A stretch of 24,000 nt of DNA from contig OY761554.1 of NCBI GenBank assembly GCA_963664655.2, positions 157,901 through 181,900 on the forward strand, read 5' to 3'. Made by a program: the position numbers and the translations under genes. Positions within the stretch are counted from its first letter, which is position 1. The number at the start of each line of letters is the position of its first letter. Origin of the DNA: an uncultured Desulfospira sp. (lineage in GTDB: Bacteria; Desulfobacterota; Desulfobacteria; Desulfobacterales; Desulfobacteraceae). Positions 606 through 18,817 of this stretch are shown in pieces. The notes under the pieces are model-generated. The model saw only the letters and a list, made by a program, of their open reading frames with translations, ran no database searches and was not told the DNA's origin.

Positions 606-891
606 ATGGAGGTCTTTGTAGCACAACAGCAGATTTTTACGGCAAATCAAAAGCTGTTCGGGTATGAATTACTGTTTCGTCCCGGGGTTGAAAATGCATT
701 TCCCGGGATTGCCGGGGACAGGGCCACTTCAAGAGTCCTTACCAACACGTTTTTTTCCATTTGGCCTTAGCGAAATTCTCAGGGAAAAACCCGGGCTGAT
801 CAATTTTACAAAAAAGCTTATTTTACAAAGGCCCCCTTTACTGTTCCCCAAAGAGCAGCTGATCATCGAAGTATTCGAAAATATTTTGTAA
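606..891 (+). pseudogene. 5' fragment of an EAL-domain (EAL/HDOD-type) c-di-GMP signalling gene, frameshifted and truncated
   Basis: ATG at 606 reads MEVFVAQQQIFTANQKLFGYELLFRPGVENAFPGIAGDRATSRVLTNTFFS, then a stop at 768-770. The reading continues in the next frame (track ORF 664-891) as GLSEILREKPGLINFTKKLILQRPPLLFPKEQLIIEVFENIL. Joined, this looks like the first ~95 aa of EAL proteins, up to the E-V/L-x-E motif. One extra T in the run at 760-762 explains the shift. The ORF stops at 889-891, exactly where the repeat starting at 888 begins, and no remainder of an EAL domain follows. Confidence 0.6.
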
Positions 892-1041
892 CTGTTCAGC
901 AGTGCCCCATCTTCGCTCATTTAAGGCCTTCTCACATAGCAAACCTATGCACCGAAGTCCTGACCAAACAAATATGAAGCACTGATGGACAGTTACGGCC
1001 CCCGATGTTTGCTAAGTTTTCAGCATTAGCTGAATAGTTAC
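888..1041 (+). repeat. MITE-like structured repeat, left copy. It has an 18-nt terminal inverted repeat core (888-996) plus a 3' hairpin (1019-1034).
   Basis: It aligns by hand to the reverse complement of 18664-18817: the first 34 nt are identical, with about 15 substitutions and one 1-nt indel overall. Internally, gtaactgttcagcagtgc (888-905) pairs with gcactgatggacagttac (979-996). Confidence 0.8.
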
Positions 1042-1045
1042 AATA

Positions 1046-1086
1046 TTTTTATAAGAAAGTCTCACTAACAAGCTGAAAAGACTTTC
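1046..1086 (+). repeat. 41-nt hairpin repeat, copy 1 (stem gaaagtct/agactttc, 1055-1086)
   Basis: tttttataagaaagtctcactaacaagctgaaaagactttc matches the reverse complement of 2668-2708 with one mismatch. Confidence 0.8.
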
Positions 1087-1234
1087 AATATTTGTTGTGG
1101 GCGGTTCTTGGTTGGATAACCCAAGCCGTCCCGGTTTCTGCCCTTTAGGGTATGGCGGTTATATGGATGCGATTCAAAGGGCTGATTCGTTTCTCAGTCA
1201 GGCATTTTTTTAGAAAAAAAGGAGGGAATAAAGG

Positions 1235-2419
1235 ATGGCACAAACTGAAAACCGGACGATCTTTGTTGTAGATGATACCCCGGTCAATATTGATATGCTG
1301 GATGACATTCTAAACAAAGAATACAATGTCAGGGTGGCTTTGGATGGTGAAACAGCCCTGAAAATGATTTCAAAGGGAGAAATGCCCGATTTAATTTTGC
1401 TGGACATTATAATGCCCGGAATGGACGGTTATGAGGTTTGCCGCCGCCTTAAGGAAAACAAGGCCACCCGTGGAATTCCGATTATTTTCGTGACATCCGT
1501 AACTGGTTTTGAAGGAGAGGTCAAAGGACTTGACCTTGGGGCGGTCGATTATATTACCAAACCATTTGACCCGACCGTGGTTAAAGCCAGGGTCCGGACG
1601 CAAATGGAGTTGAAAATGTACCGCGATCATATAGAATCATTGGCTGAGGCGCGTGCCCGGCAGCTCGTGCATGCCGAGCGCCTCAGTACACTGGGTATGT
1701 TATCCGCAGGCATTGCCCACGAAATCAGCAACCCGCTGACATACATTATGAGTAACGCAAGCATTATTAAAATTGACCTGGAGAATTTGCAAGATACGGT
1801 TGCCCAGGCCCTGGAATACTCAGACCCCTACAAAAAAAGCATTGATGAGATAACCCGTGGCTGTAAGGAATCCATCCTGGAAGTGATAGACGGATCCAAC
1901 AGAATTGTGTCGCTGGTCAGGAATATGAAACATTTATCGCGACACGATGAAGAAACCAAGACGCAGATTGACCCTGGCCGGTGTGTGGAGAATGCGCTCA
2001 ATCTATGCCAGTTTGATTTGAAAATGATTAACGTACATCTGGACATAGATGACGATTTGCCCCGGGTAACAGGCAATATGCAGCAAATCGAACAGGTGCT
2101 GATCAACCTGTTTAAAAATGCTGTGGATGCGCTAGAAACTGTAAAACCGCCGGAAATAAGCATAACGGCAAAGGCCGGCGAAAACGCTATATGGATTCGT
2201 GTGGCCGATAACGGCCCGGGGATCAAGGAAGCAAACCTTCCAAGCATCTGGGAGGCTTTTTACACCACCAAAACAGAAGAGAAAGGCACCGGTCTAGGGC
2301 TTTCCATCAGCAAAGGCATTATTGAAAACCATGGCGGAAAGATCCGGGTACAAAATTTAAATCCCCAGGGGGTCTGCTTTACCATTGAATTACCGGTTGC
2401 TGATGCCTTAACGTCTTAG
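1235..2419 (+). CDS. Soluble response-regulator receiver / histidine kinase fusion (REC-HisKA-HATPase_c)
   Basis: 394-aa ORF with RBS aaggaggg upstream. REC has the phospho-acceptor Asp in LILLDIIMPGMDG (D57, 1403-1405). H-box is SAGIAHEISNP (H162, 1718-1720). N box is LINLFKNAVDA, G boxes are DNGPGI and GTGLGLS. No TM segments. Confidence 0.93.
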   Translation: MAQTENRTIFVVDDTPVNIDMLDDILNKEYNVRVALDGETALKMISKGEMPDLILLDIIMPGMDGYEVCRRLKENKATRGIPIIFVTSVTGFEGEVKGLDLGAVDYITKPFDPTVVKARVRTQMELKMYRDHIESLAEARARQLVHAERLSTLGMLSAGIAHEISNPLTYIMSNASIIKIDLENLQDTVAQALEYSDPYKKSIDEITRGCKESILEVIDGSNRIVSLVRNMKHLSRHDEETKTQIDPGRCVENALNLCQFDLKMINVHLDIDDDLPRVTGNMQQIEQVLINLFKNAVDALETVKPPEISITAKAGENAIWIRVADNGPGIKEANLPSIWEAFYTTKTEEKGTGLGLSISKGIIENHGGKIRVQNLNPQGVCFTIELPVADALTS

Positions 2420-2667
2420 CGGATTTATCATTCGCCTTTCTTCCACGAAGAAGCGGTTAAAATTATTATCCGCGGTGGTAGCCGGGTCGTGCCCGGACAC
2501 GTTCCACATGGTCATGCCCCCTGAAATCATGTTTGTTATCTGGTTTCTTCAGCCATGGTTTCTGGCTGGCAGCCTTGCCCGCCTTTTTCCACTCCGGCTT
2601 TCGGCAAATAGTTTTGCCGGTCATAATTCCGATGGTCTGGAACAAACAACCGCCTACAACGAAAAAT

Positions 2668-2708
2668 GAAAGTCTTTTCAGCTTGTTAGTGAGACTTTCA
2701 TATAAAAA
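2668..2708 (-). repeat. 41-nt hairpin repeat, copy 2 (inverted relative to 1046-1086)
   Basis: gaaagtcttttcagcttgttagtgagactttcatataaaaa is the reverse complement of copy 1. The asymmetric loop sequence shows a true inversion. Confidence 0.8.
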
Positions 2709-3071
2709 ACGTCACGGACAGCCTGGATTATAAATGCGGTTACCCTAATTTTCGCTTCATTCAGTGTTTTATATATGATATATATACGTTATAATTATTC
2801 TTCGCAAATTGTATGAAAAATCAATACTCCCATACAAAGCCTGATTTTAAAAAAATTATGGCTGTTTCCCGTTGAGCTCTCCAACTGTTGAAATCACCGG
2901 ATCACAAGGGTAATATTTCCATTTGCCTTCGAGATTGCCTGAAATCTGATCAAAGCCCAATATCCACAATGCTTCTTGATTTGTACCAGGGGGTTTCGGC
3001 GACGGTGTTCTGAATTGATGTTGAGGGATAACCACACCACAGTCCAACTTTAGATAGGAGCTAAAAATCCT

Positions 3072-17928: not shown

Positions 17929-17948
17929 AGGCGCTTCTTTGTAAATTT

Positions 17949-17965
17949 ATTCCGCTATGCGGAAT
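17949..17965. promoter_or_regulatory. Perfect palindrome ATTCCGC-TAT-GCGGAAT, a candidate IclR operator, with two further half-site-like copies at 17981-17987 and 17989-17995
   Basis: A 7+3+7 palindrome lies 21 nt upstream of the IclR start codon. GCCGAAT and GCGGAAC repeats follow. Assigning it to IclR is inference. Confidence 0.4.
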
Positions 17966-18035
17966 TATTTTTTTTAAAATGCCGAATTGCGGAACACGCT
18001 ATCCGGGGAATCCCGGGTTGTCAAGGAATTTTTTT

Positions 18036-18135
18036 GTGGACATGGGTGGACAGGGTGGACCAAGTGGACTTTGTGGACAGCTAAAGAGCTGTGCCGTACC
18101 GGGTCCACACGGTCCACCAGGTCCACTGTGTCCAC
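18036..18135. repeat. Array of five GTGGAC hexamers followed by four GTCCAC hexamers with 9-bp periodicity around a central acagct/agctgt dyad
   Basis: GTGGAC starts at 18036, 18046, 18055, 18064 and 18073. GTCCAC starts at 18103, 18112, 18121 and 18130. The central palindrome is at 18077-18092. Spacers are not complementary, so only the hexamers are conserved. Confidence 0.85.
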
Positions 18136-18258
18136 CATTCGATATGCAAATGGGCAAAGCTGACTAAAAACGCAATTTGCATAAAAATGAATTACATAGT
18201 ATGATCTAAACCGTCACCACAAGCCCAAGCAGAAAAGAACAAAGCAGGGGGGATACCC

Positions 18259-18651
18259 ATGACAACCAAACCCGTTTTTCTAGCGGCTGTCTGCCTGTGC
18301 TTAATATGGGCCGGGCAGGTGTCGGCCATGCAAAGCACCAACTATAAGATCACCGCTTCGGTCATGTCCTCAGGCGGGGGAACCATGACGTCGGCAAGCT
18401 TTGTTTCCAATGCGGTTCTCGGGCAGCCAAGCCCCATCGCGGATCAGGATGAAACCCCTGTGTCGGCCAGCTACGACCTGTATCCGGGATATTTGTACAC
18501 CCTGGTCTCAGGCTCTTTCTGTGGCTGGGATCTGAACCCATCTGACGGGGATGTGGACGGGCTGGATTTATATCTATTTATAGACGGCTTTGACGTAACC
18601 GAGTATATAGAAGATTTTTCAGGCGAGTTCGGCAGAACCGGCTGCCAGTAA
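18259..18651 (+). CDS. Small secreted protein with a C-terminal Cys-bracketed acidic (dockerin/EF-hand-like) module
   Basis: 130-aa ORF with RBS agggggg and signal peptide MTTKPVFLAAVCLCLIWAGQVSA. It carries STNYKI...GGG...SASF...GQP...SASYDL repeats. The C-terminus is CGWDLNPSDGDVDGLDLYLFIDGF...EFGRTGC. Confidence 0.7.
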   Translation: MTTKPVFLAAVCLCLIWAGQVSAMQSTNYKITASVMSSGGGTMTSASFVSNAVLGQPSPIADQDETPVSASYDLYPGYLYTLVSGSFCGWDLNPSDGDVDGLDLYLFIDGFDVTEYIEDFSGEFGRTGCQ

Positions 18652-18663
18652 ACCATAACATGG

Positions 18664-18817
18664 TGTACCTATTCAGCCAATGCTGAAAACTAAGCAAAAA
18701 TCAAGCTCCGTAACTGTTCATCAGTGCTTCATATTTGTTTAGTCAGGACTTCGTAGCATACTTTTGCTATGTGAGAAGGCCTGAATGAGCGAAGATGGGG
18801 CACTGCTGAACAGTTAC
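18664..18817 (-). repeat. MITE-like structured repeat, right copy (inverted relative to 888-1041)
   Basis: The reverse complement aligns with 888-1041. Its internal TIRs (gtaactgttcagcagtgc / gcactgatgaacagttac) and the ttcagc-N4-gctgaa hairpin are retained. Confidence 0.8.

Follow-up and report, generated by a model that had tools for sequence, protein, structure and literature searches.

Two inverted copies of a multi-copy miniature inverted-repeat transposable element bracket a signalling and transporter gene block in an uncultured Desulfospira

Several families of miniature inverted-repeat transposable elements (MITEs) with hairpin structure have been described in bacteria, among them Correia/NEMIS in Neisseria, ERIC/IRU in enterobacteria and RUP/BOX in pneumococcus. 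These elements are 100-200 nt long, carry terminal inverted repeats, occupy intergenic positions in tens to hundreds of copies and may give rise to RNA hairpins when co-transcribed. We describe here an element of the same type, designated family A, in the genome of an uncultured Desulfospira sp. Two inverted copies of it bracket a 17.9-kb region with signalling and tripartite ATP-independent periplasmic (TRAP) transporter genes in a stretch of 24,000 nucleotides, referred to as the window (contig OY761554.1, positions 157,901 to 181,900, or C1:157901-181900). Family A elements are 153/154 nt long and resemble the above MITEs in all these traits. They differ from them in sequence and in the transposase family inferred below, and whereas Correia elements duplicate the dinucleotide TA, family A duplicates 8 bp.

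The two window repeats are very probably independent insertions of this multi-copy MITE, and the block between them is neither a mobile nor an invertible unit. Family A would move as a non-autonomous element, with transposase supplied in trans, and each insertion duplicates an AT-rich target of 8 bp. Two such insertions, independent of each other, would have happened to bracket the signalling and TRAP genes.

A dispersed family of small intergenic elements

The host genome comprises two contigs, C1 (5.34 Mb) and C2 (1.29 Mb). BLASTN found 71 family A hits in it, 57 on C1 and 14 on C2; 34 copies are full-length and about 35 are truncated, with break points that vary. The consensus is 153 nt long, and family A is non-coding, with no open reading frame (ORF). 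Identity to the consensus reaches 97% or more in eleven copies, which points to a fairly recent burst of proliferation. All 34 full copies start with GTAACTGTTCAGC and finish with GCTGAATAGTTAC, their terminal inverted repeats being conserved; read as reverse complement, the right terminus is GTAACTATTCAGC. A third copy of the terminus, facing inwards, closes a hairpin core of 109 nt, after which a tail of 45 nt follows. The right-end module of about 45 nt also occurs alone, about 14-20 times. We considered it as a separate mini-element and rejected this, since its variable break points identify the lone modules as truncated copies.

Target-site duplications of 8 bp are perfect in 14 of the 34 full copies, match in at least 7 of 8 positions in 18 and in at least 6 of 8 in 23, compared with 2/34 in a control where the right flank of each full copy was shifted by 8 nt. 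Several of the remaining full copies have a duplication off by only one base. The duplicated sites contain 79% A+T, the genome having 50.7% G+C. Without exception, the full copies lie in intergenic regions (between long ORFs), 18 of them between tandem, 9 between divergent and 7 between convergent genes, and these contexts are unrelated to each other. Orientation relative to flanking genes shows no bias, ten copies in tandem contexts pointing the same way as the genes and eight the opposite way. In its size, terminal inverted repeats, duplications of fixed length and dispersed copies, family A has the defining features of a MITE. Apparently, it is an undescribed MITE family of Desulfobacteraceae; no published description of such a MITE was found in the literature for Desulfobacterium.

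With this copy number, a pair of copies 17.8 kb apart is what chance predicts. Simulations in which 34 full copies were placed at random gave 3.05 pairs within 18 kb, and three are observed; the probability of at least one such pair is 0.96. An earlier reading of the window, made from its sequence only, had recognised neither the terminal inverted repeats nor the target-site duplications that mark the MITE. One of the three explanations it offered for the pair was nevertheless that members of a dispersed intergenic repeat family had come to lie there by chance, and the BLASTN check it proposed indeed reveals dozens of intergenic copies, on both replicons and in unrelated contexts.

The two copies in the window and the block between them

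A repeat search of the window returned the inverted arms 883-921/18784-18822 (39 nt, 97%) and 921-1049/18657-18785 (129 nt, 86%). The left MITE copy lies on the + strand at 888..1041. It is 154 nt long and 91.6% identical to the consensus, with the hairpin core at 888-996 (folding z = -5.4 to -5.7) and the 45-nt tail ending in the outer terminal inverted repeat. The right copy occupies 18665..18817 on the - strand, with its hairpin core at 18709-18817, has 153 nt and is 96.7% identical to the consensus. Left and right copies are 89.6-89.7% identical to one another (BLASTN alignment of 155 nt, E=1.7e-53) and their first 34 nt are the same. The sequence-only reading had therefore described the pair correctly, as inverted repeats of about 154 bp and about 90% identity with 34 identical initial nucleotides. 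Its coordinates hold for the left copy; the right one starts at 18665, base 18664 being part of the target-site duplication. Similarity so far beyond chance arises because the family is multi-copy and not because the two sites stand in any special relation, and the pair is an ordinary feature of this genome.

The two copies have separate target-site duplications. That of the left copy is AATATTTT, present both at 880..887 and at 1042..1049, identical in all eight positions, the latter overlapping the first bases of a repeat of another family (family B, see below). The right copy entered the roughly 16 nt that separate the stop codons of two convergent genes, a 130-aa ORF and a VWA gene. Its inner duplication (+ strand AACATGGT, 18657..18664) matches the outer one (+ strand TAAATGGT, 18818..18825) in 6 of 8 positions, and the last base of the outer duplication falls within the VWA stop codon. 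The outer flanks of the pair, AATATTTT and TAAATGGT, match in only 4 of 8. Moreover, both copies have closer kin elsewhere in the genome: the left one is most similar to the copy at C1:1390469 (93.5%), the right one to three distant copies (98%). They carry 13 (left) and 5 (right) private differences from the consensus and have a single non-consensus state in common. Given a separate duplication for each copy, closer relatives elsewhere and unmatched outer flanks, the two repeats are separate insertions of the same MITE, with no net inversion and no composite movement.

The inverted arrangement had also suggested a substrate for RecA-dependent homologous inversion of the 17.9-kb segment, in which case two genomic isomers would coexist in the population. 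Such exchange is physically possible, the copies being about 153 nt long and inverted, with 34 nt of uninterrupted identity (97% over 39 nt), a length close to or beyond the minimum that RecA requires for exchange in E. coli. Had the copies recombined with each other to invert the segment an odd number of times, however, the two flanks of the left copy would have been separated. As this copy is still flanked on both sides by the same 8 bp, the assembly shows the orientation present at the time of insertion. Nor are the copies chimeric, as their private differences show, and they have diverged by 10% overall; pairs at such spacing are in any case expected by chance. A selective rationale is also missing, because inversion would leave promoter-gene connections inside the block unchanged. 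A site-specific invertase switch finds no counterpart either, a Pfam scan of the 19 window ORFs having returned no recombinase or invertase family. It is thus highly improbable that the pair works as an inversion substrate.

According to Pfam, the sensor side of the block encodes a REC-HK protein, an SBP-HAMP-PAS-GAF sensor, RsbR/S/T/X-like proteins, a hybrid HK-Hpt protein and a REC-HD-GYP protein, and the transporter side a family III CoA-transferase, a fused DctQM, a TAXI binding protein and IclR. A small ORF inside the block belongs to no Pfam family. Outside, to the right of the right repeat, are VWA(CoxE) and MoxR-type AAA genes, and to the left there is a decayed EAL gene, confirmed by three-frame translation. 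All this agrees with the sequence-only reading, as does the lack of any transposase or integrase family among the 19 ORFs scanned. A second, diverged VWA(CoxE)/MoxR-type AAA pair was noted at C1:147.4-149.5 kb, about 27 kb to the left of the pair in the window. Its proteins are 27% and 46% identical to those of a same-genus genome (G001), and two family B copies lie upstream (C1:147038-147209).

The third explanation offered for the pair took the copies as boundaries of a block that had been acquired or rearranged, either as a composite transposon moved through its outward-facing ends or as scars of arrival. In composite transposons of the Tn5/Tn10 type, inverted copies of a mobile element likewise bracket cargo genes, and here the outer end of both copies is indeed the same left-type terminus. 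A composite element should nevertheless have a single outer duplication and none at its inner ends, whereas each copy in the window has a duplication of its own and the outer flanks, matching in only 4 of 8 positions, share none. In contrast to Tn5 and Tn10, the copies are also non-autonomous and diverged, and their supposed cargo is not a unit in G001. In that genome the IclR-TAXI-DctQM-CoA-transferase operon is retained, at 76-82% amino-acid identity, on a different contig and among different neighbours, VWA-MoxR is conserved elsewhere, DUF374 is found at yet another place, and matches to the signalling genes do not go beyond domain level. Since the operon is a separate conserved unit there, the 17.9-kb block is not one unit.

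Comparison with G001 supplies a further point on either side. The G001 VWA gene adjoins Ogt and DUF945, and the host orthologues of these two genes are located to the left of the window, at C1:152.3-154.06 kb, which might be taken as a trace of an inserted block. Yet the same position places the start of the additional DNA (as compared with G001) at C1:~154,06x, about 4.7 kb to the left of the left copy and not at the repeat. G+C content, which the sequence-only reading had proposed to compare inside and outside the block, shows no step at either repeat, and synteny with G001 is broken at most of the gene and operon junctions examined, with no sign of the block as a unit.

The truncated EAL gene at the left junction could be seen as a mark of arrival as well. 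This EAL-like pseudogene remnant (606..887, + strand) retains N-terminal codons only and has one frameshift near 760, as judged from three-frame translation with and without the MITE; its fragments have no Pfam match. When the MITE and one copy of its duplication are removed in silico, the remnant runs straight into the 5´ end of family B. Because the perfect duplication of the MITE spans this EAL/family B junction, the MITE arrived after truncation, and the truncation is linked to family B rather than to family A. The rest of the gene may, for instance, have been lost by recombination between family B copies. The G001 EAL gene matched by the remnant was considered as its orthologue and rejected as a paralogue; the host orthologue of that gene is C1:2589551-2590756. 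On this evidence, an acquired block delimited by the two copies is scarcely credible.

Of the three explanations, chance placement of a dispersed repeat is the only one to survive. Three observations weigh against the overall reading of the pair as chance insertions of a trans-mobilised MITE. All three close pairs of full copies are inverted; the probability of this is 1 in 8, which is not significant. The right copy is situated at a synteny break with respect to G001; most intergenic regions examined break too, and with breaks nearly everywhere, the one at the right repeat is uninformative. Finally, no full-length element with the exact ends or the internal sequence of the MITE was found in the host genome or the loci examined, so the basis of the transposase assignment discussed below is the agreement of about 12-14 terminal bases and of the duplication length.

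The background of rearrangement is high throughout. Of four extra host loci, one has no DNA match in G001 at all, and the others compared break at nearly every junction; G001 is too rearranged to yield empty insertion sites. The gene downstream of VWA differs in 13/13 further family members, and consequently no ancestral state could be set. Two neighbouring genes of G001, with a gap of 28 nt, have host counterparts at C1:4803500-4807200 that are separated by a 1.3-kb gene and a family A copy. The inserted gene has its G001 orthologue on another contig, and the MITE is again found beside a rearrangement junction; given so many synteny breaks, no conclusion can be drawn from this junction. The practical consequence for annotation is a correction: the 17.9-kb signalling/TRAP region is not to be read as mobile, invertible or recently acquired on account of these repeats.

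Termini and the IS66 family

The combination of an 8-bp duplication with ends beginning 5´-GTAA is the signature of the IS66 family, and family A displays both traits. IS66-family ends have been quoted as GTAAGCG.../GTAACCG... (PMC12888890). For ISDge4 of Deinococcus geothermalis, an active IS66 member of the ISBst12 group, one published end is GTAACTGCTCAGCA and the direct repeat measures 8 bp (PMC12898284); the left end of the MITE is identical to this end in 13 of 14 positions. Elements of the ISBst12 group such as ISDge4 thus share with family A termini beginning 5´-GTAACT..TCAGC as well as the duplication length. Family A differs from them in being non-coding and only 153/154 nt long and in possessing an internal third terminus and a long hairpin core, and similarity was detected only in the first 12-14 bases.

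A search of the host genome with PF03050 (DDE_Tnp_IS66) identified one complete gene and one fragment. The complete gene, for an intact DDE_Tnp_IS66 protein of 486 aa, is carried by an intact IS66 element of 2.27 kb (C1:3578811-3581079) with ends GTAACTACTCA (GTAACT..TCA) and the 8-bp duplication CTTTTTGG. This element also has a 223-aa ORF, a possible passenger gene with weak similarity to D12-class N6-adenine DNA methyltransferases. G004, a genome from another genus of the same family, contains six near-identical single-ORF IS66 elements of 1,580 bp with ends GTAACTACTCAGGC and clean 8-bp duplications, and the right end of the MITE (GTAACTATTCAGC) matches these ends in the first 11 of 12 bases; agreement of the MITE termini with the 1.58-kb element is 11-12/13. 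Altogether, the host and G004 elements agree with the MITE in the duplication length of 8 bp and, at the termini, in the first 10-12 of 13 bases; the ends are not identical and there is no internal similarity.

A search beside the IS66 transposase genes of the host and of G004, G011, G012 and G016, the last three being further relatives included in the comparison, did not find the exact ends of the MITE, with up to 5 mismatches in 18 allowed. Terminus searches allowing up to 1-3 mismatches returned a sole candidate pair for an autonomous partner, at C1:4422336/4423930. It was rejected: it brackets a Gly-rich secreted protein and contains no transposase.

Judging from termini and duplication length, family A is probably mobilised in trans by a DDE transposase of the IS66 family (ISBst12-type). 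This transposase might come from the intact element at C1:3.58 Mb, or else from a relative that has since been lost or that visited the genome horizontally. By its ends and its duplication length, family A is tied to the ISBst12 branch of IS66, which has been poorly studied.

A sister family is present in other genera. Its members have ends GTAAATATTCGG, the same three-part design of a hairpin with a short tail, and 8-bp duplications. G012 has about 63 matches to these ends, and G004, G011 and G016 have a few; further members come from records bearing the label Desulfocicer vacuolatum DSM 3385 and from metagenome-assembled genomes of uncultured Desulfocicer / Desulfobacterium. None was found in the same-genus G001.

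Hairpin core and other small repeats

The hairpin core of 109 nt folds with z-scores of -5.4 to -8.8, and its two strands are not equivalent. In family A, the strand complementary to the GTAAC-first orientation reaches -58.7 kcal/mol and the GTAAC-first strand -41.7 kcal/mol; the corresponding values for the core of the sister family are -70.9 and -48.1 kcal/mol. This gap arises because every mismatch between the arms is a transition that gives a G.U pair on the stable strand only (6 vs 0 G.U pairs in family A, 7 vs 0 in the sister family). Such one-sidedness hints at constraint on one single-stranded form of the element, be it RNA or the DNA engaged in transposition.

If the constrained form were RNA, copies such as the right one in the window, which separates the convergent 130-aa ORF and VWA gene, might serve as putative 3´-end stabilisers, terminators or processing sites. 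We hold this to be doubtful; if true, it would amount to a family-wide, transposon-borne post-transcriptional module in Desulfobacteraceae. In a broader form, the element would also serve the host as a structured module of RNA or DNA (mRNA 3´-end stabiliser, terminator or processing site, for example), and the two window copies would alter how the genes beside them are expressed. The long fold of the core and the restriction of G.U mismatches to one strand in both families are in keeping with such a function. Nevertheless, the copies show no orientation bias relative to flanking genes, many of them are truncated or decayed, there is no Rfam match, and co-evolution of transposon ends produces apparent compensatory changes too. 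A host function is therefore improbable. The Rfam scan covered window positions 700-3100 and identified no family for repeat A or B, its only hit being a weak chance match at 2517-2590.

Family B, which abuts the left MITE, is unrelated to family A and far more numerous, with about 430 BLAST hits in the host genome (343 on C1 and 85 on C2). In the window it is represented by a long form at 1046..1163 on the + strand and by a second, partial and inverted copy at 2641-2708 on the - strand. The short form of the repeat is 85 nt long and ends in a hairpin with a GTGA loop; the long form of 117 nt has an extra hairpin. The repeats often follow one another head to tail, about every 91 nt. Compensatory changes that distinguish two subfamilies preserve the terminal hairpin (CG 170 / GC 72; UA 186 / CG 60). 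Kin of family B are abundant in G004, and none were found in the same-genus G001. One family B copy is located inside a family A copy (C1:4565714-4565963), from which it follows that family B has been mobile.

Two more families of small repeats, C and D, were encountered in the host genome, which is unusually rich in nested small mobile elements of families A to D. These nested repeats are useful for annotation, assembly checks and strain typing of these sulfate reducers. The family A copy at C1:3387088-3387583 holds a nested family C element of 331 nt with ends CAATGTCATTAACTTAAG and a duplication of about 10 bp, CTTCTCACAT. Family C has about 6 full copies and itself contains a family D repeat of about 145 nt, of which dozens of copies exist at about 80% identity.

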